A stretch of DNA of 64,000 bases. Origin: a bacterium. Its GTDB lineage: Bacteria > Krumholzibacteriota > Krumholzibacteriia > LZORAL124-64-63. A program made the position numbers and the translations under genes. Of this stretch, positions 20,508-56,170 are shown in pieces. A model generated the notes under the pieces. It did no database searches and was not told the origin of the DNA. It saw only the letters and a program-made list of their open reading frames with translations. The stretch covers positions 1-64,000 of the forward strand of contig JANOEP010000044.1 of the NCBI GenBank assembly GCA_031441465.1, read 5' to 3'. Numbering within the stretch: position 1 is the first letter of the stretch; each line of letters opens with the position of its first letter.

Positions 20508-21101
20508 ATGCGATGCCGGATCCCCTCCACTCTGGTCCTGGTCGTCGCCCTGCTGACCGCGGCGAGCGGCGATCTGGCGCAGACCGACGCCTTCTGCATC
20601 AGCGAAAACGAGACGGGAACCGGAGGTTGGGGTTGCACCAACATCCCCGCCTTCGTGCCGACGAACATTTACCTGTGCCTGCTCCACCCGAGCGGGGAAC
20701 AGGTCTTGGCCTGGGAGGCCAGGATCATTCACGACAACGCCACCGCCATGGTCGGCTCCTGGGTGGTCAACGGCGTGGATTCCCACCCGGACGCCGAGAA
20801 TTTCGTCGTCACCTGCGTGGTCTCACCGCTGTATCCCAACCCGCAGGATATCGTCGTGCTGGGCTCGATGCAGGTTATCGTCCTGAATCCGAGCGAGCGC
20901 ATCGAGTTCTTCATCGGCCCGATTCCCGGATCCACGAACTTCCCCGCAGGCACGCCCGGTTACGTCCACACGATGGGCATCAACACGCCCGCCACCGTGT
21001 GTAGCGGCGAATACGCTTTGCCGGTGTTCCACATCAACATGTGCCTCATGGACGCGGTGGAGGAAGCCGACTGGGGTGCGATCAAGGCGCTGTACGAGTG
21101 A
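20508..21101 (+). CDS. Secreted hypothetical protein with WGxxKxxY tail
   Basis: Signal peptide; strongly similar to the N-terminal domain of the 21239 gene; ends DWGAIKALYE. Confidence 0.75.
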   Translation: MRCRIPSTLVLVVALLTAASGDLAQTDAFCISENETGTGGWGCTNIPAFVPTNIYLCLLHPSGEQVLAWEARIIHDNATAMVGSWVVNGVDSHPDAENFVVTCVVSPLYPNPQDIVVLGSMQVIVLNPSERIEFFIGPIPGSTNFPAGTPGYVHTMGINTPATVCSGEYALPVFHINMCLMDAVEEADWGAIKALYE

Positions 21102-21238
21102 TGAGCGCTTCGTGCCGGCAAGGCCGTGATTCCCGCCGGCGTGCCGGCGTGCGTCCACCCGCGCCCGCTCAATCCGAGCGGCAACCAGATCATGGTCCTC
21201 GATGCCAGATTCACCGATCCCCATCACGGAGGCCATCC

Positions 21239-23566
21239 ATGAGCATGTCCACCCGGTTCTACCTGACGATCTTCGCCGCCCTGCTCGCCCTGTCCGGCGC
21301 CGCGCTGGCGCAGCAGGACGCCTTCTGCATCTGCGTCGACCCGACGGATCCCGCCGAATGCGGCGGCAACGCCGACATCCCGATGTTCGTGCCGACGAAC
21401 ATCTACCTGTGCCTGCTCAATCCGAGCGGCAGCCCGGTCCGGGCCTGGGAGGCCCGGATCACGAACACCAACCAGTCGGGCATGATCGGAACCTGGGTGA
21501 TGTCCGGGCTGGACGTCGACAACGACCCCATGGACTTCGTCATCGGCAACGGCGCCTCGCCGCTGGTCCCGAATGCGCAGGATGTCGTCGTGATGGGCTC
21601 GATGCAGGTCATCATCCTGAACGCCAGCACGCCCGTCGAATTCTATATCGGGCCGATCCCGGGTTCGGGCACGTTCCCGGGCGGCACCCCGGGCTACGTG
21701 CACACGCTAGGGTTCAACACGCCTGCGACCGTGTGCGGCGACGACTTCACACAACCCGTCTTCAGCATCAACGGCGACAACCCGCCGCCCTTCGAGGACT
21801 CCTTCACCGTGACCATCTCGTCGACGCTCGGCGCCTACCACGACTTGAACAACCTCGCCGGCATGGAAGCGAGCGCGACGGACGGCCTGGACCCAAACCT
21901 CGATATCCCCGAGCCGCCGGCCCCGCCGGCGGGATTCGCGTACCTGACCTTCCCGCATCCCGAGTGGGCCTCGCCTCTGGGTGACAATTTCCGCACGGAT
22001 TACAGGGCGACCTACGTGCCGGCGACCACGACCAAGACCTGGTCGCTGCATTTCACGACCGACCAGAGCGGCGTCGCGATGCTCGACTTCCAGCCGAGCT
22101 TCGACCAGACCGCGAACTGGGAGCTGACGTTGATCGACCTCGATTCCGGCGAGGTCGTGGATCTCTGGGGCGCAGGACTCGACTACTCGTTCAACGCCAT
22201 GCCGGGTCAAGTCCGCCACCTGGAGCTGCTGGTGGGCCCGACCCAGATCCCGCCCCTCAGCCCAACGTCCAGCCTCCTGCCGACCGGTTGGTCTCTGGTG
22301 GGCATGCCCCTGCTGCCGGACGCGCCGGGCACCGTGGGCTCGGTGCTGCTGGACGACATCGTCAGCCCCACGTTCGTCTACAGCCACACGGTGAGCTCCG
22401 GCTACCAGCAGCAGTTGCCGAACGACGTCATGCGGCAGGGCAAGGGCTACTGGGTGGGCGCGAACAACCCCTTCACCTGGACGATGGAGGGGCAGCGCGA
22501 CCTCAACGGCGCCTCGTTGGTCCTGAACAGCGGCTGGAACCTGCTCGGCGCGCCGTTGTGGACCGCCATGAGTATCGACGACATCAAGGTCGACTACCAG
22601 GGCACCCGTTACGACTACGCGACGGCGGTCCAGATGGGCCTCGTCGGCAGCTACGTCTATTTCTACCAGACCTCGACGGGCACCTACGTGACCCGGTCCA
22701 CCCTCCATCCCTGGCACGGTTACTGGGTACCCGCCTACATGAGCGGCGTCAGCCTGTGGTTCCACTACACCAACATCGGCCCCGACAAATCCACCCCGGC
22801 CGCCCCGATCTTCGAACCGAACGACCTGAACTGGCGCCTGAGCCTCGGCCTCGAGGGCAACCCCGAGTCCGTGGTCGTCGGTCGCCTCGAGAAGGCCGCC
22901 GACGGCTTCGACGCCGCCTGGGACCAGCCCCGCCCGCCGCGCGCGCCGGTCGCCGCGTCCCGGCCGGAGCTGTGGCTCGACGGTTCGGCCCTGCACCTCA
23001 GCACCGGCGACCAGCTCACGTCCGACTACCGCGCCGCGACGGACGCGGACGTGGCCTGGGACCTCGTCGTCACCGCGCCCGCGCCTGGGCCGGTCACGCT
23101 GCGCTGGGACGCCGCGGAGTGGGGCGGCCGCGAAGATCTGCAGCTGTACCTGCCCCACCAGAACCGCGTCGCGGTGATGTCGATGCGCGAGCGGTCGAGC
23201 TTGACACTCGATGTGGGCGCCGCGCCGATGATCGTGCGCCTGCGCACGCCGGACCTGTCGACCGGCGCGCCGGAGGTTGTCGCGGGCAGTTATCTGCTGC
23301 GCGCGGTGCCGAACCCGTTCAACCCGCGCACCGAGATCGTGATGACGCTGCCGCGCGCCGGCAAGGCCGAGGTGCGGGTCCACGACGTTCTCGGTCGCGT
23401 GGTGAAGCGCTTCGCGGTCGACGCGGCCGTGGCCGGGGAGAACCGCGTCACCTGGCTGGGCACCGACGATCGCGGCCGTGACGTGGCCAGCGGCGCGTAC
23501 TTCGCGGCGCTCTACGTGGATGGGGCCGCGTCGGGCGCGGTGGTCCGGTTGAGCCTGGTGCGCTGA
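21239..23566 (+). CDS. Multidomain secreted protein with FlgD-Ig/T9SS-like C-terminal domain
   Basis: GGAGG RBS; signal peptide; GWSLVGMP/GWNLLGAP repeats; PNPFNP...WLGTDDRG...SGAY tail. Confidence 0.8.
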   Translation: MSMSTRFYLTIFAALLALSGAALAQQDAFCICVDPTDPAECGGNADIPMFVPTNIYLCLLNPSGSPVRAWEARITNTNQSGMIGTWVMSGLDVDNDPMDFVIGNGASPLVPNAQDVVVMGSMQVIILNASTPVEFYIGPIPGSGTFPGGTPGYVHTLGFNTPATVCGDDFTQPVFSINGDNPPPFEDSFTVTISSTLGAYHDLNNLAGMEASATDGLDPNLDIPEPPAPPAGFAYLTFPHPEWASPLGDNFRTDYRATYVPATTTKTWSLHFTTDQSGVAMLDFQPSFDQTANWELTLIDLDSGEVVDLWGAGLDYSFNAMPGQVRHLELLVGPTQIPPLSPTSSLLPTGWSLVGMPLLPDAPGTVGSVLLDDIVSPTFVYSHTVSSGYQQQLPNDVMRQGKGYWVGANNPFTWTMEGQRDLNGASLVLNSGWNLLGAPLWTAMSIDDIKVDYQGTRYDYATAVQMGLVGSYVYFYQTSTGTYVTRSTLHPWHGYWVPAYMSGVSLWFHYTNIGPDKSTPAAPIFEPNDLNWRLSLGLEGNPESVVVGRLEKAADGFDAAWDQPRPPRAPVAASRPELWLDGSALHLSTGDQLTSDYRAATDADVAWDLVVTAPAPGPVTLRWDAAEWGGREDLQLYLPHQNRVAVMSMRERSSLTLDVGAAPMIVRLRTPDLSTGAPEVVAGSYLLRAVPNPFNPRTEIVMTLPRAGKAEVRVHDVLGRVVKRFAVDAAVAGENRVTWLGTDDRGRDVASGAYFAALYVDGAASGAVVRLSLVR

Positions 23567-23673
23567 GGCGCCGGGTGGTCGTTGGGCGGCGGGGCAGCTG
23601 CGGCTTGTCCCGCCGCCGTCTTTTCAGTAAGGTGATCCCGGACCGCCACCGCCCCGCCGCCGGAGGGATGCCG

Positions 23674-24270
23674 ATGCGTTTCCCGCGCCCCGCGCCTGCC
23701 CTGTTCTTCGCCCTGATGCTCGGCGCCGCCGCCGCCGCGTCGGCCCAGTCCGACGTGTTCTGCGTTTGCACCGACGCCACGACCGGAACCTGCGGCGGGA
23801 ACCTCGAGGTGAGCGTGCCGGGGTCGTGCACCGTCTATCTGGTGCTCGCGCAGCCGTCGGGGTCGCCGGTGATGGCCTGGGAGGCCCGGGTGACCGTCGA
23901 GGGGTCGGCCACCTACGTGGGCGGCTGGACGCTGGCGGCCGGCTTGAACGTGGGCAGCGGCGACAACTACACCGTCGGACTGCAACTGGGCGGCCTGAAC
24001 GGCCTGATGCCCAACGGCGTCGGCTTGGTGCCGCTGATGTCCATGACCGTGATGCTGCTGGGGGAGGGCCCGCTGCTCTTCAAGGTGGGGCCCGTGCCCG
24101 GCTCGGCCAGTTTCCCGGACGGGACGCCCGGCTACCTGGTGGGCGCGGACACCCTGAAGCCGGCGTCGGTCTGCAGCGGCTCTTTCGACCGGGCCGTGTT
24201 CACCCTGAACAACGGCGACGCCGACGAGCAAGGCACCTGGGGCGAGGTCAAAACCCTGTATTCGCACTGA
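23674..24270 (+). CDS. Secreted hypothetical protein, paralogue of the 20508 gene, WGxxKxxY tail
   Basis: PSGSPVMAWEAR and GPVPGSASFPDGTPGY shared motifs; ends TWGEVKTLYSH. Confidence 0.75.
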   Translation: MRFPRPAPALFFALMLGAAAAASAQSDVFCVCTDATTGTCGGNLEVSVPGSCTVYLVLAQPSGSPVMAWEARVTVEGSATYVGGWTLAAGLNVGSGDNYTVGLQLGGLNGLMPNGVGLVPLMSMTVMLLGEGPLLFKVGPVPGSASFPDGTPGYLVGADTLKPASVCSGSFDRAVFTLNNGDADEQGTWGEVKTLYSH

Positions 24271-24394: not shown

Positions 24395-25036
24395 ATGCAA
24401 GAAACCAACGTCGCCGTTGCCGTCCCCGCCTTCACCGGCGCGGCCCCCGATTCCCTGCTCGACGTCTTCCAGGACCAGATCCGTCCCGGCGGGAGGATCC
24501 TCGACTTCGGGTCCGGCGACGACCGCCGTGACCTGTACCTGGCTTCTGAGGGTTACCGCGTCACCGTACTCGCCGGGTCCGCCGAGGCCGAGTCGCGCCT
24601 GAACGAGGCCGCGGCCGCCGACGGCCTGGACCTCGTCGCGCTTCGGGAATCGTTCCTGGAGCACGATCCCGGGACGCAGCCGTACGACGCGCTGCTCTGC
24701 TACGACCTGCTGCCGCGCCTGTCGCGCACGGACAACGCCAGCCTGCTGCACCGCATCTTCAGCTGGACGGCGCACGGGTCGCTGCTGTTCCTGACGGCAC
24801 GGCACGTGGACGACACGTCCTACGACGAGGTGAGCGCGACGTGGGAGAAGGCGGGCCTGCACAGCTTCCGCGGTCCGGACGGCGAGTACCGCACCTACCT
24901 GGCGCGCGGCGTCGTGCGCAACCTGTTCCGTGGCTGGAACACGCTGCACCATCGGGAATCCATGTCGCTGGTCGACGGGAGTGCGGCCGATGGACCCAGG
25001 GCGGGGAGGATCGAACTCGTGGCGAGGCGCCGCTAG
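24395..25036 (+). CDS. Class I SAM-dependent methyltransferase-like protein (TehB-like, divergent motif I)
   Basis: RILDFGSGDDRRDLYLASEGYRV; YDALLC; terminal LVARR. Confidence 0.6.
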   Translation: MQETNVAVAVPAFTGAAPDSLLDVFQDQIRPGGRILDFGSGDDRRDLYLASEGYRVTVLAGSAEAESRLNEAAAADGLDLVALRESFLEHDPGTQPYDALLCYDLLPRLSRTDNASLLHRIFSWTAHGSLLFLTARHVDDTSYDEVSATWEKAGLHSFRGPDGEYRTYLARGVVRNLFRGWNTLHHRESMSLVDGSAADGPRAGRIELVARRR

Positions 25037-25389
25037 ATCAGCGGCGCCCCGCCACGTCAACCCCCACCTGCACTGCTGGAGCGTGAGACTGGGAAGGCCG
25101 GAACTCCCCCGAATGGCCCTCGCCCGTAGGTCATTCTCGAAAAAGGAGTTCCGGCCAAGGATGTGAAGGAGGTTCGGGTCGCGACTCGCTAGCGCTTCGC
25201 ACAGTGTTTCGGATACTGCCCGCAATCGAATGGTATGCCCCCCACACCCACTCCGACATCATCTATAAGCACGAACCCGGCGGGACGTTGCATGGCTTCG
25301 GCGGTTTTCCGCAATATTTTCACATTCCGGTATCCCGATAAGTGTATGCTATGAAAAGCCCTCGCCCGGCCGACGGGAGAATGAAGCGC

Positions 25390-25575
25390 ATGATCAAGAT
25401 CGTCGAACCAGACCACCGCCCCGAGATCCTCACCCCGCGTGCCGACGGGACGTGCGGTTGCTCGTGTGCCTGTAATTGTGCGACTGGAGATCAGGCCGGG
25501 AACCAGTCGATCAAATCACCCAAGAGCGATATCATCTCATTTCCGGTCATCCACGGGAAGCGTGACGGCGCCTGA
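25390..25575 (+). CDS. Putative RiPP precursor peptide with CxCxCxCxC core (61 aa; alternative starts 25351/25381)
   Basis: GGGAGA RBS; MIKIVEPDHRPEILTPRADGT-CGCSCACNC-ATGDQAG...; overlaps the start of the radical SAM gene. Confidence 0.72.
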   Translation: MIKIVEPDHRPEILTPRADGTCGCSCACNCATGDQAGNQSIKSPKSDIISFPVIHGKRDGA

Positions 25576-27013
25576 GTCCGGCCGCCCGCTCTGCCGGGTC
25601 TTCCAGCACGGGGGCCGGAGCTATGTCTACGACGCCGGGGCTGATCAGGTCGTCGAGGTGTCGGCGTCCGTCGCCTCGTGGCTGGATGCAGCGATGTCCT
25701 ATCCGGACTGGATCGCCGCCGATGCCGCCGTCGAGGCAGAGATCGTGCAGGCCCGCGTCGTGCACGGCCTGTTCCGCACCGGGCGCCCGCGCCTGGTCGC
25801 GAAGCGATCCGGTCGGAATCGCGCCGCCGACGATGCCGGCCGCATCTCACAAATGACCCTCACCCTGGACGAGCGCTGCAACCTGCGCTGCGCCTACTGC
25901 CCGCACACGCTCGCCGCCCCCTGGACGCGACCTCACGGCGAGCGGCGGATGTCGGAAGATACGGTGCGGGCCGCTGTGGATCTGTTCCTGGCGTGTGCGG
26001 ACGGCGGTTCGCCGTCGATATCGCTTTACGGCGGCGAGCCCCTGCTGGCGCCGGGACTCGTCCGCGTGGTCGCGGACCTGGTCCACGCGGCACGGCGGCC
26101 CGGAATCCGGATCATCCTGGACACCAACGGCACCCTGCTCGATGACGCGATGGTGGAGATCGTCGCCGTACGGGGTCTGTACCTGCAGGTGAGCTTGGAT
26201 GGTCCGGCGCCGATCCACGACCGCTGGCGCACCACGGTCGACGGCCGTCCCACGCACGCCGCGGTGATGGCGGGCCTGGAACGCCTGCTCGCTCGGGATC
26301 CCGCAGCGGCAGGCCGGTTGCAGTTCCAGGCGACGCTGGCGCCCGGCAGCGATATGCTGGAGGCCGACGCCTTCTTCGTGGAGCTGGGCCGCGAGTTGGG
26401 CCTCGCCGACATGTCGGTGGGTGCGTCCTATGCGGACATCCCAGGGATGGTCGAGGCCGACCCGACCGCGACCTCGCCGGAAGCGGGCGGGTGGGAGCGG
26501 GCACGCGCCGTGTACGTCGAGGCCTGCTCGTCTGGTCGCCACGCCGACTTGGGGCCGCTGGTGCAAGCTTGGTTCGACGGCCCCCTGATCCGTTTCTACC
26601 ACCGCGAAGCAGAACCGTTGGCCTCGACCTTCCGGCCGGGCGGCGTCTGCACGCCCGGTCTGCGCCGCCTCCACGTTTGCAGCGACGGCACGCTGCAGCC
26701 TTGCGAACGCGTGGGCACGGCGTTCGGCCTCGGCGACGTGCGGCGCGGGTTCGATCTCGACGCCGTGGACCGGCTCGAGCAGGCGTGGTTCGATGCCCTC
26801 GGCGGCCGGTGCGCGGACTGCTGGGCGCTTCGCCACTGCAGCCTCTGCTTCACGGCGATGATCGACAGGGAGTCGGGCTGCGTGGGCGCCGTGCCGGAAT
26901 CGGCTTGCCAAGACGTCAGGAAGGAGTTCGAAGGCACGCTGCGCTTGTGGGTGGAGCTGCTGGCGCGCAACCCGCGGGCCCTGGATCACCTGAGGGGCAG
27001 CAGCGTCAGTTGA
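25562..27013 (+). CDS. Radical SAM/SPASM peptide maturase (CcpM-like)
   Basis: CNLRCAYC; YGGEPLL; VSLDGP; C-terminal GGVCTPGLRRLHVCSDGTLQPCERV...CADCWALRHCSLC...C; N-terminal FQHGGRSYVYD RRE-like segment. Confidence 0.88.
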   Translation: MTAPESGRPLCRVFQHGGRSYVYDAGADQVVEVSASVASWLDAAMSYPDWIAADAAVEAEIVQARVVHGLFRTGRPRLVAKRSGRNRAADDAGRISQMTLTLDERCNLRCAYCPHTLAAPWTRPHGERRMSEDTVRAAVDLFLACADGGSPSISLYGGEPLLAPGLVRVVADLVHAARRPGIRIILDTNGTLLDDAMVEIVAVRGLYLQVSLDGPAPIHDRWRTTVDGRPTHAAVMAGLERLLARDPAAAGRLQFQATLAPGSDMLEADAFFVELGRELGLADMSVGASYADIPGMVEADPTATSPEAGGWERARAVYVEACSSGRHADLGPLVQAWFDGPLIRFYHREAEPLASTFRPGGVCTPGLRRLHVCSDGTLQPCERVGTAFGLGDVRRGFDLDAVDRLEQAWFDALGGRCADCWALRHCSLCFTAMIDRESGCVGAVPESACQDVRKEFEGTLRLWVELLARNPRALDHLRGSSVS

Positions 27014-27710
27014 GCGGGGTGCCCTGATGGAAGGTGATCACGCCGCATTCCGGCACGTCGAACTGCCAGGACGAGAACGCCACCGGCGTGCCGTTGAGCA
27101 TGATGGTGTCCATTGGCGCGGGACCCAGGGTGCCCCGGTAGGCCGCCAGGCCGATCTCCCGGTAGCGGGGGCTCTGGAAGAACTCGCGGAGCTGCTCGTT
27201 GTCCTCGATCTCGCCGATGCTGACCGGGAAGGTGTTCGCTTTGTCCACTCCGTACGCCAAGTGGTATTCCGTTTTCCCCTTGTACGACAGGCCGAAAGCA
27301 TGGGCCAAGGGCAACAGCCCCTCTAGGTATGACTGCTGCAGCTCTTCCATCGCCAGTCGTAGAGACTCGAGTTCTGCGCTGGCGTAGGGCACGCGCACCC
27401 CGTCGGCGGTGCTGCGACTGAATCCGAAGGAGGCCTTGGCGTCCCGGGTGGACGAAAGGGATGCTGTACCGTCATCGTGGATCTGCATGACGTCGAGACG
27501 GAGCCCCGTTGATTCCAGCGCCGGCTGATTGGCGAAGGTCGCGCCCAGCATCACCGCCACGATCGCGAACGCGACCAGGGGTCGCGAGGTCCGCCGGTCG
27601 CTGATACGCCTCCGCAGTTCCGCCCGCAGCGCCTCCTTGTGCTCGGAGTCGAGCCGGGGCGAGATGCGCGTCCCGCTCAGCCTGCGTTCGAGATCGTCGT
27701 GGTCAGACAT
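27006..27710 (-). CDS. Probable anti-sigma factor / single-TM membrane protein
   Basis: Overlaps the stop of the ECF sigma gene; short charged N-terminus (EHKEALRAEL), TM, extracytoplasmic domain. Confidence 0.55.
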   Translation of the reverse strand: MSDHDDLERRLSGTRISPRLDSEHKEALRAELRRRISDRRTSRPLVAFAIVAVMLGATFANQPALESTGLRLDVMQIHDDGTASLSSTRDAKASFGFSRSTADGVRVPYASAELESLRLAMEELQQSYLEGLLPLAHAFGLSYKGKTEYHLAYGVDKANTFPVSIGEIEDNEQLREFFQSPRYREIGLAAYRGTLGPAPMDTIMLNGTPVAFSSWQFDVPECGVITFHQGTPLN

Positions 27711-28374
27711 GCCGGTCGTTCCCATCCCAGTGTTTGTCCCGGCCGTCCTCCATGGCGCCGCGCAGCTTGCCGAGCGTGCGGTGCAGCCGGGACTTCATGG
27801 TGCCCTCGGGGACGCCGTAGATCGCGGCGATCTCCTTCACGGGCAGGTCTTCGTAGATGCGCAGGGCGAGCCAGTTCCGTTCTTCGTGCGTCAGTTCGCT
27901 GAGATACCGGTCGAGCCGGAAGCGCTGCCGGGCCTTTTCCAGCTTCAGGGCGGGACTCGACTCGCTGTCCGCGAGCACTTCCTCGCCCAGGACGTTCAGG
28001 GGCGTGAACCAGGACTGCTGCCGTTGCGCCAGCTTGAAGTGGCGGTTCAGCCGGTTGATCGCGATCCGATAGAGCCACGCCTGGAACGGTTTGCTCTGCC
28101 ACCGGAACTGCCACAGCCGGCTCAGGGCGAGGTGGAACACGTCGGCGGTCAGGTCCTGGGCGTCCACCCGGTTCAGGAGCCGGTTGTAGAGGAAACGAAA
28201 GATCCGATCGTAGTAATACTCATACAAGTAGTCGAACGCATCGGCATCGATCTTGGCGCTCTGGATGCGGAGCCGCTCGTACTCGAGCCGCTGGGGATCG
28301 TCCACCGCGGCCGTCTTCGGATCGAAGACAACCGCAAGCCCCGGCCGCAGCCCAGGATGTTCCTCTCGTGCCAT
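27703..28374 (-). CDS. ECF sigma factor
   Basis: AFDYLYEYYYDRIFRFL, AQDLTADVF, FQAWLYRIAIN, EIAAIYGVPEGTMKSRLHR; start uncertain. Confidence 0.9.
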   Translation of the reverse strand: MAREEHPGLRPGLAVVFDPKTAAVDDPQRLEYERLRIQSAKIDADAFDYLYEYYYDRIFRFLYNRLLNRVDAQDLTADVFHLALSRLWQFRWQSKPFQAWLYRIAINRLNRHFKLAQRQQSWFTPLNVLGEEVLADSESSPALKLEKARQRFRLDRYLSELTHEERNWLALRIYEDLPVKEIAAIYGVPEGTMKSRLHRTLGKLRGAMEDGRDKHWDGNDRHV

Positions 28375-28526
28375 TACAATGACGATGTCCCGGATCGGTT
28401 GCCACAAATGAGCGGTCGCGGGGGCGGGTTCTCGATTTGCCGCCCGGTGACGACTCTGCTACGTTCTCGGTTGAATATACCACATCGGGCGCCGTCGTGG
28501 CGCGTCGTTCCCCGAAAGGCCCCGTC

Positions 28527-30071
28527 ATGGCCGAGCTTCCCGCCAGGAACCTCAAGGCGTTCATCGCCTTGCTCGAGCAGGCCGGCGACCTGGTGCGCGT
28601 CCGGGAGCCCGTCGATCCCGTCCTGGAGGCCGGCGAGATCGCCGACCGCTTCGTCAAGGCCGGCGAGGGCCCCGCCCTGCTCTTCGAGGACCCGCGCCCC
28701 GGCCGCTGGAGCGAGCGGGCCGGCCGGACGGCCCGGGCCACGGCGTCCGACGGCCGGCCGGTGCCCCTGGCCATGAACCTGTTCGCCTCGCGCCGCCGCA
28801 TGGCCTGGGCCCTGGGCTGCGAGTCGTTGGAGGAGGCCGTCGCCCGGGTGCGCGAGCCCCTGGAACTCGCTCCCCCTGAGGGGCTTTGGGAGAAGTTGAA
28901 GCTGCTGGGCAAGGCCCGCGACTGGAGCGCCGGCCTGCCCCGCTCGGTGGCCGGCGGACCCTGCCAGGAGGTCGTGGTCCGGGGCGAGGAGCTGGACCGC
29001 CGCGGCATCCTGGACCTGATGCCCGTGCTGACGACTTGGCCGCAGGACGGCGGTCCCTTCATCACCCTGCCGCTGGTCATCACCCGCAACCCCGAGACCG
29101 GCCGGCGCAACATCGGCATGTACCGGCTGCAGGTCTTCGACGGCCGCACCACCGGCATGCACTGGCAGCTGCACAAGACCGGCGCCGACCACTACCGCGC
29201 CTACGAACGGCGCTGCGAGCGCATGCCCGTCTGCGTGGCGCTCGGCGGGCCGCCGTCGCTGACCTACGCCGCGACGGCGCCGCTGCCGCCGGAGATCGAC
29301 GAGTCGATGTTCGCGGGCTTCCTGCAGGGCGCCCCGATCGCCTGGACCAAGGCCCTCACCTGCGACCTGGAAGTGCCGGCCGAGGCCGACTTCGTGCTGG
29401 AGGGCTACGTCGATCCCGGCGAGCGCCGCCGCGAGGGGCCGTTCGGCGACCATACCGGTTTCTACACCCTGCCCGAGGAGTTCCCGGTCTTCCACGTGAC
29501 CGCGATCACCTCGCGCCGCGATCCCGTCTACCCGTCGACCATCGTGGGCATCCCGCCCATGGAGGACAAGTGGCTGGGTTGGGCCACCGAACGCCTGTTC
29601 CTGCCGCTGATGCAGAAGCCGCTGCCCGAGGTCGTCGACTACCACCTGCCGCCGGCCGCCTGCTTCCACAACCTGGCGATCGTGGCGATCCGCAAGCAGT
29701 ACCCCGGGCACGCGCGCAAGGTCTGCCACGCGCTGTGGGGGATGGGCCAGATGATGTTCTGCAAGACCATCGTGGTGGTCGACGCCGAGGTCGACGTCCA
29801 CGACCCATCCGGCGTGCTGTGGCGCGTGACCAACTCCATCGACCCCAAGCGCGACACGTTCTTCGTCGACGGGCCCGTCGACCACCTCGACCACGCCGTG
29901 AACGTCCAGTTCCTGGGCGGCAAGATGGGGATCGACGCCACCGCGAAGTGGGAGGGCGAGGACGGCTACCGGCGCGAGTGGCCGCCGATCGTGCGCATGG
30001 ACGACGCGGTCAAGCTCGATGTCGCGGAGCGCTGGCGCGACCTCCTGGCACAGGCGGGGCGGCAGAAGTGA
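28527..30071 (+). CDS. ubiD: UbiD-family decarboxylase (menaquinone biosynthesis, MqnL-like)
   Basis: GPALLFE, WPQDGGPFIT, EGPFGDHTGFY, GGKMGIDAT. Confidence 0.93.
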   Translation: MAELPARNLKAFIALLEQAGDLVRVREPVDPVLEAGEIADRFVKAGEGPALLFEDPRPGRWSERAGRTARATASDGRPVPLAMNLFASRRRMAWALGCESLEEAVARVREPLELAPPEGLWEKLKLLGKARDWSAGLPRSVAGGPCQEVVVRGEELDRRGILDLMPVLTTWPQDGGPFITLPLVITRNPETGRRNIGMYRLQVFDGRTTGMHWQLHKTGADHYRAYERRCERMPVCVALGGPPSLTYAATAPLPPEIDESMFAGFLQGAPIAWTKALTCDLEVPAEADFVLEGYVDPGERRREGPFGDHTGFYTLPEEFPVFHVTAITSRRDPVYPSTIVGIPPMEDKWLGWATERLFLPLMQKPLPEVVDYHLPPAACFHNLAIVAIRKQYPGHARKVCHALWGMGQMMFCKTIVVVDAEVDVHDPSGVLWRVTNSIDPKRDTFFVDGPVDHLDHAVNVQFLGGKMGIDATAKWEGEDGYRREWPPIVRMDDAVKLDVAERWRDLLAQAGRQK

Positions 30072-51856: not shown

Positions 51857-54802
51857 TCAACGCGCGAGCGTCACTTTGATCGAGCGCTCTTTTCCGTCGG
51901 CGGTCAGCCTCACCACGTAACTTCCCGAAGCAGCAACGCGTCCGCGCTCGTCGCGACCGTCCCAGACCAGCGCCTGCCAGCCGGCCGGTCGCGCGGTCAT
52001 CGCCAGTTCGCGAACCAGCCTCCCCATCTGGTCGTAAACGGCAAGACGGATCCGGGACGCCGCCGGCAACCCGAAGCGGATCGTCGTGCTGGGATTGAAG
52101 GGATTGGGATAACTCTCCAGCGCGAACGGCGCCGCGGGGGTGCTCGGCCCGGCGCCGGTGACGTCCTGCGGCCGCAACAGGCCTGGGGCACCCCGGTTCC
52201 CGTGCACGTCAACGCCCGCCACCTTGTAATAGGAACCGCTTCCGGTCTCCCACGACGCGTCGGTCCAGATCGTGTCACGCAAAGAGGCGACCAGACTGGC
52301 CTCGTTCACTGGGAAGTCCGGACTCGTGCCGCGGTGGACCTCGTAGCGGTCGAGGTCCGCTTCGGTATTCGGATGCCAGGCGAGGTCGAGCCGCGCCGGA
52401 CCGAACTGTGCGCGGCCGGCCAGCCCCTGTAGCAGCGCCGGCGCCAGGTTGTCGACCGAGCGCGCGCTGTCGGGCGGCGACGCCCAGAACACGGCGGGAT
52501 CGGCCGTGTGCGCGAGGACCTGGACGTAGGTGGGATCGTCGCAGACCGCGGTGGAGTCGAACAGCGTCGGGACGGTCTCCGCGTAGCCGGGCAGGTAGTA
52601 CGCGTCCAGCGAGGAGATCAGCCGCCAGTAGAAGGTCCGGCCGTCGAGGGTTTCCGTCCGCAGTTCCCGCTGTGGGGCGGCCGCTTTCTGGAGCGCCGCT
52701 TCGGCGGCGGTGATGGCGCGCCAGACCGTGTAGCGGGTGATGAGCCGCTGCTGCGCGTCGTCGCCGGGGCTGGCGTGCCACGAGAGGTCGAGCAGGCCAC
52801 CCTGGTCGCCCGGGACGTCCCGCACCGCGTGGAGGCGCGGCACGCGGTCGCCGGCGCCGCTGCACGCGACGCCGGGGCAGGCGACTCCGGTCGTGATCAT
52901 GGCGGCCGCCGGCTCGACCGCGACGGGGGAGAAGCGGACCACCACGTCGAGCGTGTCGCCGTGGCCGAGGTCGAAGGGCCCGGCGCCCTGGACGAGGCTG
53001 AAGGGCGAGGCTGGCGTGTCGACGGTCCCGGTCAGCCGGCAGCCGCCCTGGTTCGTGACGACGAACGGGAGATCCGCGTGCTGCCCGATCGACACGACGC
53101 CGAAGTCCAGCGACGCGGGCGCGACCAGGCAGGAGGGATCGACGCCGAGGCCGGTGAGCGGGATGTCCGCGCAGCCGCCGAGCCCGATGTCCAGGGTGCA
53201 GGCGTGCGTCCCGCCGGAGGTCGGTTCGCAGCGCACGGTCACCGCCAGCTGTTCGCCGGCGCCGAGGCTGAATGGGCCGCCGCCCGCCAGGACGGTGAAA
53301 TGGTCGCACGATTCGGAGACGTCGCCGGTCACGACGCCGCCGCCGTCGTTGCTGATGACCAGCGTGCTGTCCCTGTAGGCTTCCACCTGCCCGAAGTCGA
53401 GCTGGTCCGGCTCGACCCGGCACAGGGGCGTCGGCTGCGCGAAGATGTCCGTGCCGCCGCCGCCGCCGCTGCGGGCGTCCCACCAGGCGACCAGCTCGTT
53501 GCTCGTGGTGAGGGTGGCGGGGTAGGGGTAGGTCTGGTCGCCGTCGGCCGCGCACAGGACGAGCCCGTCGGCCGCCCACCGCGCGGCGCCGTTGGCGTCG
53601 ACCTGCTGGACGTAGATGTCGGCGTCGGCGCCGCGCTGGTCGTGCCAGGTCACGACGGCGCCGCCGTCGCCGTCGGCGACGACCCGGGCGCCCTGCTGGT
53701 GGCCGCTCGCATCGCAGATCGCGAGTCCGGCGGTTCCCCACATCAGATCCCCGGTGGAGCGTACGCGCTGGGCGTAGATGTCGTAGTTGTAGTTTCGCAT
53801 GTCGCGCCAGACGACGATCGCGCCGCCGTTGCCGGTGCTTGCGATCTGGGGGTTGTCGGCGGCCGGCAAGCCGGAGGAGAACATGACGACGCCGCCGGCT
53901 CCCCACTGGACGGTGCCCGTGGTATCGATGCGCTGAGCTGAGATCGTGGAGGTGCCCAAACCGTTCGTACACCAGGCGATGACGGCTCCCGTCCCGCCGT
54001 CGTCGACGATCTGGGGGCTGATCCTATTGTACATAGGGGTGTAAGGTGAAATCTGCACGCCGCCGCCGCTCCACATCGTGGCGCCGGTGCTCAGTAGTCG
54101 CTGGGCGTAGATGGTGCTGTTGGCGCTGCGGCCGTCCTGCCAGACGACGATCAGCCCACCAAGGCCGTCGGAGGCGAGCCGGGGCACGCTCTGGTTGCCG
54201 CTCACGCCGGAGACGTTCACACCCTGCGTCGTCCACTGCCCCGTTCCGTCCGGGGACAGCCGTTGCGCGTAGATGTCCTCGTTGCCGGCGGTGCGGCTGT
54301 CGGCCCAGACGATGAAGGCGCCGCCCGCCCCGTCCGCCGTGATCCGGGCGTATTGCTGGGTACCGGACATCGTGCAGACCGGAACACCGTTCGCCGCCCA
54401 GAGACAGACACCGGACAGGCTCACCTTCTGGGCGTAGACGTCGGAATTGCCGGATCTGGTGTCCTCCCAGACGACGACCACGGCCTCCGGATCGACCAGC
54501 GCCAGGCCCGTGAAGTACTGCGCCGAGGCACCCGTGCACACCGCGACGCCGTCGAGGCCCCAGAGCGGTTCCCCGGCGGCGTCCATCCTCTGTGCGTAGA
54601 CGTCGAGGTTGCCGTTGCGGTTGTCCCGCCAGGCGACGACCGTCCCGCCGGTGCCGTCGGACACGACGCAGACCTCGCTCTGATCGCCGGCCGACCGGCA
54701 GACGGGAACCCCGTCGGGCACCCAGGCGGACGTCGGCGCCGCCGAGGCGAGCAAGATCGCCAGGGCCGCGATCGCGGTTGTCGTGAAGGTGGTCCGGGTC
54801 AT
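51857..54802 (-). CDS. Secreted protein: repeated DG.GG...W.D.R...DIYAQ units (beta-propeller-like), two choice-of-anchor-D/ASH Ig domains, FlgD-Ig C-terminal domain
   Basis: About seven W.D.R..D(I/V)YAQ repeats; two LDFG.V Ig repeats; YPNPFNP tail. Confidence 0.82.
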   Translation of the reverse strand: MTRTTFTTTAIAALAILLASAAPTSAWVPDGVPVCRSAGDQSEVCVVSDGTGGTVVAWRDNRNGNLDVYAQRMDAAGEPLWGLDGVAVCTGASAQYFTGLALVDPEAVVVVWEDTRSGNSDVYAQKVSLSGVCLWAANGVPVCTMSGTQQYARITADGAGGAFIVWADSRTAGNEDIYAQRLSPDGTGQWTTQGVNVSGVSGNQSVPRLASDGLGGLIVVWQDGRSANSTIYAQRLLSTGATMWSGGGVQISPYTPMYNRISPQIVDDGGTGAVIAWCTNGLGTSTISAQRIDTTGTVQWGAGGVVMFSSGLPAADNPQIASTGNGGAIVVWRDMRNYNYDIYAQRVRSTGDLMWGTAGLAICDASGHQQGARVVADGDGGAVVTWHDQRGADADIYVQQVDANGAARWAADGLVLCAADGDQTYPYPATLTTSNELVAWWDARSGGGGGTDIFAQPTPLCRVEPDQLDFGQVEAYRDSTLVISNDGGGVVTGDVSESCDHFTVLAGGGPFSLGAGEQLAVTVRCEPTSGGTHACTLDIGLGGCADIPLTGLGVDPSCLVAPASLDFGVVSIGQHADLPFVVTNQGGCRLTGTVDTPASPFSLVQGAGPFDLGHGDTLDVVVRFSPVAVEPAAAMITTGVACPGVACSGAGDRVPRLHAVRDVPGDQGGLLDLSWHASPGDDAQQRLITRYTVWRAITAAEAALQKAAAPQRELRTETLDGRTFYWRLISSLDAYYLPGYAETVPTLFDSTAVCDDPTYVQVLAHTADPAVFWASPPDSARSVDNLAPALLQGLAGRAQFGPARLDLAWHPNTEADLDRYEVHRGTSPDFPVNEASLVASLRDTIWTDASWETGSGSYYKVAGVDVHGNRGAPGLLRPQDVTGAGPSTPAAPFALESYPNPFNPSTTIRFGLPAASRIRLAVYDQMGRLVRELAMTARPAGWQALVWDGRDERGRVAASGSYVVRLTADGKERSIKVTLAR

Positions 54803-54883
54803 GGCTGATCTCCCTCCGCTTCGGTGGTGCCGGCAGGAACGGGGGCGCGGACCGGCGGCCGCGCCCTCCTCATCGATGGGACT

Positions 54884-55687
54884 TCATCGGTACATGCTCT
54901 TGATGGCCCCCCAGCTCGTGGTGTCTCCGGCGACCGCACCGCAGTCGCAGGCCGTCGCGCAGAGGTTCACGGGCGTGATGACGCCGCCGCAGTTGAAGTT
55001 GAGCGCGAAGCAGCAGACCGCGGCGAAGGGCACGGTCGCGTCGGCCGACACGGCGAGGTGGCCGCTCCAGCCCGGCGGCACCGGGTTGGGCGCGGGCGAC
55101 AGGTCCTCGTTCAGCAGCGCGACGTTCCAGCCGGCGCACACGCCGGCGAACCACCAACCGGCCCAGCCCGGGCACATCGTCACGACGTGGATCATGGAAT
55201 GGCCGAAGCCCGGGCAGACCAGCAGATTGCCGAAGTGGGCGTTGACCTGGCCGCCGGGGGCGCCGTTGAAGAACCAGATGATGTCCACGTTGCCGTCCCA
55301 GTGGTCCTCGGGTCCGCAGTAGTCCTTGTCCCCGGTCGGCATGAGCCAGGGCAGGGTCTCGGTCGCCGAGGGAGGCAATTCCTCCCGCAGAACCTCCAGG
55401 AAGACGTCGAAGAAGCTGTCCGGCATCATCGGCGGTATCTGGAAGGTGCCGATCGTGCCGTGACGAGGCAGGAAGGCGCCGTACTCCTGCGAGAAGAGTT
55501 CGCCCGACGCCAGTTCAGAGGTCTGGGTGCCCGCGTTGTGGAACTGGACGTGGAAGGCGACCATGGCTCCCTGCGTCTCCCAGTCGACGGCGACGACCTC
55601 GAGCCCGCCCTGCGCCGCAGTGGCCGCAGGCAGCAGCAGAACCGCAGCCGCGACCAAGCAGAGTGCGATACGTAGCTTGTGGTGCAT
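54884..55687 (-). CDS. Secreted Cys-rich hypothetical protein with WGxxKxxY tail
   Basis: Signal peptide; DSFFDVFLEV motif; ends SWGAIKSMYR. Confidence 0.72.
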   Translation of the reverse strand: MHHKLRIALCLVAAAVLLLPAATAAQGGLEVVAVDWETQGAMVAFHVQFHNAGTQTSELASGELFSQEYGAFLPRHGTIGTFQIPPMMPDSFFDVFLEVLREELPPSATETLPWLMPTGDKDYCGPEDHWDGNVDIIWFFNGAPGGQVNAHFGNLLVCPGFGHSMIHVVTMCPGWAGWWFAGVCAGWNVALLNEDLSPAPNPVPPGWSGHLAVSADATVPFAAVCCFALNFNCGGVITPVNLCATACDCGAVAGDTTSWGAIKSMYR

Positions 55688-56170
55688 GTTCGACCCCCTT
55701 GAAGCTGGACTGTGCCCGGCCGACGACGCTCGCCGACCGGCAGGAGCCGCCGGGCGTCCCTCCCTCGGACGCGCCGTCGGCGTCGAACGCCACCCGCATG
55801 TGGGACGGCCGGTCCGGAGCGCGCGGATACGCCGCGCGCCGGCATCGCAGGCAGGGGGCGGAGTCGGAGTCTTCGGTGACGGAGGCTCGGGATCGAAGAT
55901 CGAGGGCGTGCGGCCGAGGTGAAGGCGGGGTTGATCGGGCTCCGCAGCCCCCGGAACGACGATCTTGGCGCCGGGCGGAGAATGCTGTCAACGGGGCTGC
56001 CGGCCGCCGTTCCAGCTGCATGGGGCCCATCGGGTTGTCGGGCGGTTGCGCGCCGCCGCCACCCTGCCGGAAAGCCGATCTCCCCCGCGGCCGTCTCCGA
56101 CCTGACAAACCCGCCCCGCTGCGCTACATTTCGCCGGCACCGAGCCCACCCACGCGAAGGGAACGCGACC

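Follow-up and report, generated by a model that had tools for sequence, protein, structure and literature searches.

An Alternating-Cysteine Peptide and a Radical SAM/SPASM Enzyme in a Conserved Four-Gene Module with an ECF Sigma Factor

What is made, and to what end, where a gene for a short cysteine-rich peptide overlaps the start of a gene for a radical S-adenosylmethionine (SAM) enzyme? The question is raised by positions 25,390 to 27,013 of the window, which is the whole stretch of 64,000 nucleotides analyzed here (positions 1 to 64,000 of contig JANOEP010000044.1, GenBank assembly GCA_031441465.1) from a bacterium of the Krumholzibacteriota. An earlier sequence-only reading proposed that a 61-residue precursor and a radical SAM/SPASM maturase constitute a minimal two-gene locus for a peptide synthesized ribosomally and modified post-translationally (RiPP). 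The linkage of precursor and maturase is indeed conserved across genera, in 50 of 63 loci, but the locus is not minimal; the conserved unit also contains a sigma factor of the extracytoplasmic function (ECF) type and a membrane protein, denoted c1. We put the probability that this four-gene module is a thioether-crosslinked, RiPP-like peptide system tied to an ECF sigma switch at roughly 0.6. Genes, fold, and predicted recognition support the RiPP-type reading; what we infer is how the crosslinks are formed, that c1 is an anti-sigma factor, and which way the regulatory link runs.

Radical SAM/SPASM enzymes that crosslink cysteine-rich peptides are a known class. What is new is a distinct enzyme subfamily with a peptide family of its own, whose cores form a ladder from CxCxC to CxCxCxCxCxC and which has neither a curated model nor a name. 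Also new is its steady coupling to an ECF sigma factor and to a membrane partner that matches no known fold, without genes for export or cleavage. The coupling to the sigma factor, which the earlier reading did not see, is the most interesting feature. If the peptide is part of the sigma switch, a RiPP-type modification would serve as a step in signal transduction, a new use of RiPP chemistry; were it to prove a simple thioether peptide, the pair would still offer a compact two-gene tool for rigid multi-ring peptides. With four small genes, the chemistry and the possible part in regulation can each be put to a direct test.

The Module and Its Distribution

The enzyme family was detected at E ≤ 1e-40 in 60 of the 208 genomes of the phylum: 54 of 90 in the taxonomic family of the window, 3 of 43 and 2 of 23 in two other families, with none elsewhere. 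Most of one family of uncultured Krumholzibacteria-like bacteria from sediment and groundwater carries it. From the 65 places at which the enzyme was found, 63 were kept as one locus each (two fragments from genome G149 were left out), and a profile made from the peptide sequences was run against all six-frame open reading frames (ORFs) of these 63 loci. At E < 0.01, 50 of the 63 loci have a related peptide of 45-71 residues, always with the CxCxC core, no farther than about 1.7 kb from the enzyme; 49 of these 50 matches reach E ≤ 5e-7. The c1 gene adjoins the enzyme in 49 loci and a sigma factor gene is found within 2 kb in 41, with peptide and c1 both present in 48.

At least four gene orders were observed. 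Using arrowheads for the direction of transcription, these are peptide>enzyme> <c1<sigma, as in the window; enzyme>peptide> <c1<sigma; enzyme>sigma>c1> <peptide; and c1> <peptide enzyme>. When the neighbors in 22 loci and the window were clustered, the sigma factor and c1 were found to stay with the enzyme despite the changes of order and strand. No protease or exporter is conserved among the 22 neighborhoods, in keeping with the earlier remark that none is adjacent. Chance adjacency is negligible because the genome of the window (3.49 Mb) holds a single c1 gene and only nine sigma-like genes. The locus is thus a conserved module of peptide, enzyme, ECF sigma factor, and c1. The earlier reading had suggested looking for a conserved CxCxC frame upstream of the enzyme; the peptide was found near the enzyme, but its position varies and is not always upstream.

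In a tree of 66 enzymes, all of the c1-linked ones fall into one clade of 50 rows with a Shimodaira–Hasegawa-like approximate likelihood ratio (SH-aLRT) support of 96, and the CcpM-like enzymes of the Firmicutes fall outside it. A subclade of 13 rows (support of 96) comprises the genus of the window and two others, with peptides that mostly carry five or six cysteines. A reciprocal search with c1 found it in 58 of the 208 genomes; the family of the window, with its 90 genomes, accounts for 56 of these. Of 16 c1 places examined that have no known enzyme neighbor, two have a split or truncated enzyme, six have a peptide match, and ten have a sigma factor gene beside c1. Sigma factor and c1 thus form a unit in their own right, and this favors c1 as the partner of the sigma factor, and the enzyme/peptide pair is attached to most, but not all, of these units. 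At one locus (L203, contig C32 of genome G089), the sigma factor, c1, and a peptide ending in the DING-like motif described below stand together with no enzyme match within 4 kb; in this genome, which is 95% complete, the enzyme was not found at E ≤ 1e-40.

Peptide, Enzyme, and Predicted Leader Recognition

The features reported earlier for the small ORF, namely a ribosome-binding site of its own, a leader, a cysteine core, and an overlap with the start of the enzyme gene, are all present (Table 1). The ORF reads MIKIVEPDHRPEILTPRADGTCGCSCACNCATGDQAGNQS...KRDGA, with the residues MIKIVEPDHRPEILTPRADGTCGCSCACNCATGDQAGNQSIKSPKSDIISFPVIHGKRDGA, and GGAG-like sites were found at similar spacing ahead of the peptide start in 17 of the 17 loci listed. 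Could such a frame arise by chance in GC-rich DNA? The CxCxCxCxC pattern occurs in 4 of the 53,530 six-frame ORFs of this genome, hence in three besides the window peptide, and CxCxC occurs in 365. However, when the same 53,530 ORFs were searched with the peptide-family profile, the sole match was the window ORF (E of 3e-16; next best, 0.013), and because the profile singles out this ORF and related peptides adjoin the enzyme in 50 of 63 loci, the peptide is beyond chance. Selection is also specific to the frame. For five sequences from the genus, the ratio of nonsynonymous to synonymous polymorphism (pN/pS) was determined to be 0.50 in the frame of the peptide and 1.27 and 0.86 in the other two. 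The leader (residues 1-12), with a pN of 0.014 and a pS of 0.40 for the same five sequences, shows strong purifying selection; within the genus, more change is tolerated in the linker, core, and tail, with the cysteines retained. Conservation across genera, frame-specific selection, ribosome-binding sites, and profile specificity together refute a chance frame, to which we give next to no probability. The exact 61-residue protein is already present, without a name, in public collections, so that the expectation that gene callers would miss it did not hold. Public records contain 20 related small proteins at E ≤ 0.01, all of them unnamed or "hypothetical".

In an alignment of 43 peptides of the family, only Met1 and three alternating cysteines (C24, C26, and C28 of the window peptide) are invariant. 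An initial survey of 32 loci found an upstream ORF with the leader M[IY]xK[IV][DE]P.H followed by CxCxCxCxC in the genus of the window, and an ORF of the same build in other genera whose enzymes are only 37-45% identical. Between genera the peptides share 11-40% identity, with the cysteines kept invariant. The window-type peptides also have a nearly invariant alanine six residues past the last cysteine, inside a TGDQA stretch. A first profile recovered only the type with five or six cysteines (E ≤ 4e-13, 15 of 91 genomes). A second, shorter type with three cysteines (CxCxC) was recovered by a regular-expression scan and then by a second profile. This type is the commoner of the two and often ends in the DING-like motif [YW]-x-D-[IV]-N-G, which is kept at the tail end of most relatives, with alternating Tyr/Trp, Asp, and Asn at its C-terminus. 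Its genes occupy one of three places: upstream and divergent from the enzyme, just downstream, or past the sigma and c1 genes.

Other small CxC-rich ORFs were observed near outlying or paralogous enzymes that lack the sigma factor and c1, in L171 (G093:C4), L179 (G133), L191 (G035), L196 (G099:C5), and L198 (G188), some of them as tandem pairs. A CxCxCxCxC core is seen in two ORFs of L198, which also gives a borderline peptide match (E of 3e-3), and the leader of the two small ORFs in L179 resembles a double-glycine site (LSEVNGGG). These ORFs suggest a wider superfamily of CxC peptides around CcpM-like enzymes.

The enzyme frame is open from 25439 to 27013, in a different frame from that of the peptide gene, and the start was placed at the GTG codon because a public protein (P0001) of 483 residues begins with MTAPESG. 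The protein carries the string CTPGLRRLHVCSDGTLQPCERVG quoted in the earlier reading. That reading described a CxxxCxxC motif, an N-terminus resembling a RiPP recognition element (RRE), and a SPASM motif, and each was recovered: the three cysteines of the radical SAM motif and the seven SPASM-type cysteines (C363, C381, C417, C420, C426, C429, and C449) are invariant across 38 homologues, and the RRE-like N-terminus is predicted from the structural model and the fold match to CteB. An AlphaFold model calculated with the 38-homologue alignment has a predicted local distance difference test (pLDDT) of 89.4 and a predicted template modeling (pTM) score of 0.89; its strands at residues 11-16, 19-24, and 29-33 and helices at 35-46 and 55-68 correspond to the RRE layout. 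The top Foldseek match in the PDB is CteB (5why), with an E of 1.5e-19, template modeling (TM) scores of 0.59 by query length and 0.67 by target length, and 16-17% identity. It is followed by ChlB with a leader peptide, anSME, SkfB, SuiB, and TigE.

In Pfam, the enzyme matches Radical_SAM (PF04055) with 56.1 bits, and there is no match to PqqD. The top NCBIfam family is CcpM (TIGR04068; E of 1.2e-51), where residues 12-464 align to profile positions 2-453 of 462 with a score of 176.1 bits against a cutoff of 500. The likeness to CcpM proposed earlier therefore holds as the best family match, and the CcpM locus L005 does have a CxC peptide, but the enzyme is not a member of the family. Next in rank are RumMC (146 bits, cutoff of 720), lachnocin maturase (128, cutoff of 550), QhpD (110, cutoff of 453), and PapB (97, cutoff of 340). 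The cyclophane formers YhhB, FxsB, and XyeB are among the further matches, and the SCIFF maturase model gives 65.7 bits (cutoff of 425). The anaerobic sulfatase maturases (TIGR03942), a grouping that would have spoken against the earlier proposal, were rejected, at 66.8 bits versus a cutoff of 349 and over residues 104-243 only. CcpM is the best family for all 38 of the homologues scanned, the strongest reaching an E of 4e-71, and none comes near the cutoff. From the family scores, the cysteine motifs, and the fold, the enzyme is a peptide-modifying radical SAM/SPASM protein nearest to CcpM but outside that equivalog, and it constitutes a separate, unnamed subfamily. The sole other match to the enzyme profile in this genome is a 928-residue ORF with a radical SAM core (contig C36 of G000, 53042-55825, plus strand), with an E of 5e-17 to the window enzyme.

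Co-folding of the enzyme with the peptide, each with its alignment, predicts that the leader docks onto the N-terminal domain, a check suggested in the earlier reading. The scores were 0.88, 0.86, and 0.85 (median of 0.86), and the best of three controls reached 0.01; in the calibration, 116 of 157 solved complexes attained 0.86, as did 2 of 215 mismatched pairs. Agreement between the runs amounts to at least 36% of the contacts. Residues 1-11 of the peptide are predicted to contact enzyme residues 21, 29-34, 37, and 60-70, which belong to strand three and one helix of the N-terminal domain, with the leader lying on the RRE-like strand at 29-34. Residues 17, 20-24, and 26 are placed beside enzyme residues 344-350, 361-369, 381-383, and 426-429, which brings the cysteine core close to four SPASM cysteines (C363, C381, C426, and C429). 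The predicted docking of the leader is the canonical RRE mode.

This predicted recognition bears on whether the peptide is modified at all. CxC repeats are typical metal ligands, and the peptide could instead be an unmodified, metallothionein-like carrier of metal or an Fe-S cluster that acts as a redox or metal sensor for the sigma switch, with the enzyme serving another substrate or acting as a chaperone. The CxC repeats themselves, the lack of a conserved protease or exporter, and the TehB-like methyltransferase encoded upstream would suit such a role, as would the frequent service reported for this class of sigma factors in metal and redox stress. Nevertheless, an RRE-like domain and a conserved leader are hard to explain unless the enzyme recognizes the peptide, the linkage of the two survives four gene orders, and the closest families of the enzyme are all peptide maturases. 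We consider an unmodified metal-binding peptide improbable and retain the reading of a peptide modified by its enzyme.

Table 1. Features of the module and its upstream neighbor, with coordinates in the window
Feature	Position	Strand	Remarks
TehB-like SAM-dependent methyltransferase, c5	24395..25036	+	directly upstream; Pfam TehB, 24.1 bits (cutoff 20.4)
Shine-Dalgarno sequence GGGAGA	25375-25380	+	9 nt ahead of the peptide ATG
Precursor peptide gene	25390..25575	+	61 aa plus stop; ATG at 25390, stop at 25573-25575; N-terminal leader, acidic/Pro-rich linker, Cys ladder, variable tail
Leader MIKIVEPDHRPE, residues 1-12	25390..25425	+	predicted recognition sequence for the enzyme RRE
Core CGCSCACNC, residues 22-30	25453..25479	+	five Cys, at every second position
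Radical SAM/SPASM peptide maturase	25562..27013	+	483 aa; GTG start; 14-nt overlap with the peptide gene
N-terminal RRE-like domain, about residues 10-70	25589..25771	+	three strands, then helices; predicted leader docking; covered by the full-length CteB alignment
Radical SAM motif CNLRCAYC, residues 106-113	25877..25900	+	C106, C110, C113; invariant in 38 homologues
SPASM-type region, auxiliary clusters	26648..26908	+	C363-x12-G-x4-C381 ... C417-x2-C420-x5-C426-x2-C429 ... C449
c1, single-pass membrane protein	27006..27725	-	239 aa; putative anti-sigma or sensor; convergent with the enzyme, 3' ends overlap by 8 nt
ECF-type sigma factor, c2	27703..28407	-	likely start ATG 28374, open from TTG 28407; stop overlaps c1 start by 23 nt

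Crosslink Chemistry and Known Systems

In the reading that we prefer, the peptide would be translated from its own ribosome-binding site, and its leader, MIKIVEPDH, would be bound as an added β-strand by the RRE-like domain of the enzyme. This would bring the alternating-cysteine core up to the auxiliary Fe-S clusters and into the active site, where the enzyme would most likely join the cysteine sulfurs to carbons of downstream residues. The expected product is a rigid, multi-ring ladder of sactionine- or ranthionine-type thioethers, as StsB produces on the StsA core. Thioether formation is the best-supported chemistry because the nearest families (CcpM, RumMC, PapB, QhpD, and SCIFF) and CteB act on cysteine sulfur. 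Further reasons, from the available parts of the two papers, are the CxCxC precedent of StsA/StsB (PMC10288494) and the active peptide obtained from a CcpM-type cluster of Paenibacillus (PMC10731318). As a matter of speculation, the acceptors might be the conserved alanine of the window-type peptides or the Tyr/Trp, Asp, and Asn of the three-cysteine type.

The same pair could be engaged in another chemistry, such as C–C or C–O crosslinking, epimerization, or modification of the tail, with the cysteines anchoring the peptide to an auxiliary cluster. Enzymes of the same architecture catalyze varied reactions: YhhB, FxsB, XyeB, and QhpD are among the family matches, and ChlB, followed by the sulfatase maturase anSME, stands second in the fold search. 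The DING-like motif kept at the C-terminus of many three-cysteine peptides also recalls enzymes that act on the C-terminus, such as MftC. However, this motif is missing from the genus of the window, the three alternating cysteines are all that is invariant in the peptide family beyond Met1, and cysteines are what the top-ranking matches by family and by fold (CcpM, RumMC, and CteB) act on. We regard a different chemistry as unlikely and continue with a thioether.

The nearest known systems resemble the module in parts. CcpM gives the same full-length profile alignment, and an N-terminal peptide-binding part and a SPASM end are common to both enzymes. The CcpM enzyme of L005 scores 547.9 bits against the cutoff of 500 and has an upstream peptide with CSC and CDC motifs that passes TIGR04065 (31.7 versus a cutoff of 26), which agrees with the earlier statement that the partners of CcpM are CxC-repeat peptides. 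In contrast, the window peptide has no match to TIGR04065 at E ≤ 1, and the window enzyme, which fails the CcpM cutoff, shares 24-29% identity with enzymes of the L005 type. CteB, a thioether-forming SCIFF maturase (PDB entries 5why and 5wgg), has the same architecture of an RRE, a radical SAM barrel, and a SPASM domain. SCIFF peptides have a different cysteine pattern.

As described in the available text of the report on StsA (PMC10288494), StsB converts the CxCxCx4GxGxG core of this peptide from Streptomyces sparsogenes to three nested Cys-Gly sactionines. That system, like the one in the window, combines an alternating-cysteine core with an RRE-dependent radical SAM enzyme. StsA has three cysteines where the window peptide has five, and StsB, by the same text, is MftC-like with a separate RRE protein, whereas the window enzyme is CcpM/RumMC-like with a fused RRE. 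The available portion of the paper mentions no link to a sigma factor (PMC10288494). The module was not found described in the full-text literature, a search that did not cover the supplementary datasets of genome-mining papers; the supplements of PMC10288494, by the account in its available text, contain about 15,000 RRE-associated enzymes and 3,421 predicted sacti-/ranthipeptide clusters and could include members of the family.

Could the product be a secreted antimicrobial sacti- or ranthipeptide, with a protease and exporter encoded elsewhere and the sigma/c1 pair controlling only production or immunity? A precedent is SacP23, an antimicrobial peptide from a Paenibacillus CcpM-type cluster whose crosslinks are still unsolved according to the available text (PMC10731318). 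By the same source, however, that cluster contains the accessory proteins TIGR04066 and TIGR04069, a subtilase-type protease, and an ABC transporter (PMC10731318). The SacP23 accessory genes are neither among the six window proteins scanned nor common to the 22 neighborhoods, where no protease or transporter is conserved and the ECF sigma factor and c1 are found instead. The tail of the window-type peptides is, moreover, long, hydrophilic, and variable and has no conserved double-glycine site. Secretion as an antimicrobial thus carries a low probability in our assessment. Since neither an exporter nor a protease for the leader is conserved, the modified peptide probably acts inside the cell that makes it, either in the sigma switch or under it.

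Sigma Switch, Promoters, and Neighboring Genes

The sigma factor c2 matches the NCBIfam model sigma70-ECF (TIGR02937) with 89.5 bits (cutoff of 42.9) and both Sigma70_r2 and Sigma70_r4 in Pfam; its nearest family is BldN, at 123 bits and below the cutoff of 206. The c1 protein consists of a short cytoplasmic N-terminus, a basic (Arg) run, one transmembrane helix, and an ectodomain of about 170 residues. In the ESM Atlas its relatives are hypothetical proteins, with DUF4367 on 27% of the members of one cluster. A sigma gene that overlaps the gene of a single-pass membrane protein is the usual layout of ECF sigma/anti-sigma pairs and is also that of the window. On the basis of this overlap and the co-occurrence with the sigma factor, c1 is probably an anti-sigma factor or a sensor. 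No paper that ties an ECF group to a radical SAM peptide system was found in the full-text literature, and "radical SAM" has 0 occurrences in the ECF reclassification paper.

Many of the peptide genes, even those directly 3' of the enzyme gene, are preceded at 40-50 nt by a TTGaca-like box and a TGnTAnnnT box. When 47 upstream regions of peptide genes were scored for a housekeeping-like -10 box, 36% reached a score of at least 5, compared with a mean of 15% (maximum of 30%) in 200 shuffles. These boxes are suggestive only, and if the promoters are of the housekeeping type, the peptide may act on or with the sigma/c1 switch rather than be its target. The modified peptide could then be a working part of the switch, an intracellular ligand that, once crosslinked, would bind either c1 or the sigma factor and thereby set the ECF activity, for example as an anti-anti-sigma factor or as a reporter of redox, Fe-S, or SAM status. 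This proposal fits with the lack of a protease and exporter, with peptide genes that have housekeeping-like promoters of their own, and with a module that persists while being reshuffled. It also fits with the sigma/c1 units that lack the enzyme and with the peptide of L203 beside sigma and c1 with no enzyme within 4 kb. We offer it tentatively, as a possibility to which we give a low probability.

Several observations weigh against a thioether system tied to the sigma switch. With respect to regulation, no convincing ECF-type promoter (GGAAC...CGT) was seen by eye before the peptide, sigma, or enzyme genes, and the sigma genes are preceded by extended -10 boxes of a similar housekeeping-like kind; for these reasons, together with the boxes at the peptide genes, the regulatory link is not demonstrated. 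For c1, there is no Pfam or NCBIfam match, no recognizable anti-sigma domain, and no known fold: a sequence-profile search of the PDB gave a best E of 0.29, Foldseek found nothing at E ≤ 0.001, and the best result of the VIA wide search (Z of 4.6) covers a long helix only. Ten of the 16 additional c1 places have neither the enzyme nor the peptide. Conversely, 13 of the 63 enzyme loci have no peptide match; two of these end at contig ends (L173 and L197), L156 has c1, and the remaining ten fall in outlying clades that have neither c1 nor a sigma gene next to the enzyme. Among these ten, L171, L179, L191, and L196 contain the other CxC-rich small ORFs noted above. With respect to the chemistry, Pfam SPASM (PF13186) does not match the enzyme at E ≤ 0.01. 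The only family match of the window peptide is a sub-threshold one to the StsA model NF045558 (E of 0.016, 15.1 bits versus a cutoff of 42), and the peptide lacks the GxGxG that follows the cysteine block of StsA or any similarly conserved acceptor pattern. The type of crosslink is a guess. Finally, part of the co-fold score may reflect likeness to known structures because solved complexes of RRE enzymes with leaders exist, and the fold of the peptide itself is uncertain in these models (pLDDT of 40-43).

Three genera that share the gene order of the window have a conserved TTGCAT-containing motif some 100-125 nt upstream of where the peptide starts. It reads CGTTGCATGG at 25286-25295 of the window, is also found in L084, L086, L099, and L108, and takes the form CTTTGCAT in L089-L091 and CCTTTGCAC in L094. 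The motif may be a -35 box, given TTGCAT-N18-CAATAT in the window, or the site of a regulator. A sigma-54 promoter was rejected since the spacing, assessed by eye, is inconsistent.

In five loci from several genera (L160, L162, L163, L174, and L182), a near-consensus promoter, TTGAC-N17-TGnTAtAAT, is found upstream of the enzyme. Directly after this promoter stands a conserved GC-rich hairpin (GGGAAGAGG...CCTCTTCCC), about 25-80 nt ahead of the enzyme start. A run of T follows the hairpin in L160, L162, and L163 and is short or broken in L174 and L182. The element looks like a short attenuator or another leader RNA; it has no Rfam match in the three places searched (G153, G137, and G134, corresponding to L100, L097, and L102). 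An Rfam search of nine loci gave 0 matches at E ≤ 0.1, and a scan of 24900-28700 for consensus promoters and terminators gave 0 promoters and one terminator-like site, inside the enzyme gene and not above shuffles.

An RNA-library run (X14) contains a 638-nt contig from a relative, about 90% identical, that spans 25235-25871 and covers the complete peptide gene with the region upstream of it and, beyond, the 5' end of the gene for the enzyme. Other genes are present at similar depth and DNA may have been carried over, so that this contig is no proof of transcription. The whole stretch is present only in two freshwater-sediment metagenome runs, which are possibly the source of the DNA itself; habitat labels from runs with a small share of the stretch were left out.

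Directly upstream of the peptide gene, the methyltransferase c5 is a single-copy gene in this genome. Its NCBIfam TehB score of 30.9 bits is far under the cutoff. A c5 gene is found upstream on the same strand in 13 of the 63 loci, all of which have the peptide>enzyme order, and it may be a tailoring enzyme or a mere syntenic neighbor. Several large secreted proteins are encoded further upstream (21041-24270, plus strand), with Cys-containing N-terminal repeats (FCICVDP..., FCVCTDA...) and a C-terminal end that resembles a sorting domain (...PNPFNPRTEI...). The one that was scanned (23575-24270) has no Pfam or NCBIfam match. Their genes (c3/c7) are syntenic with the module in the family of the window. 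In many of the three-cysteine loci (L103, L106, L107, L111, L097, L100, and L102), the gene divergent from the enzyme begins with M..KK.TLHNHLLALKNDE..FENAF, a start that we take to resemble the N-terminus of kinases of the PrkA/YeaG type.

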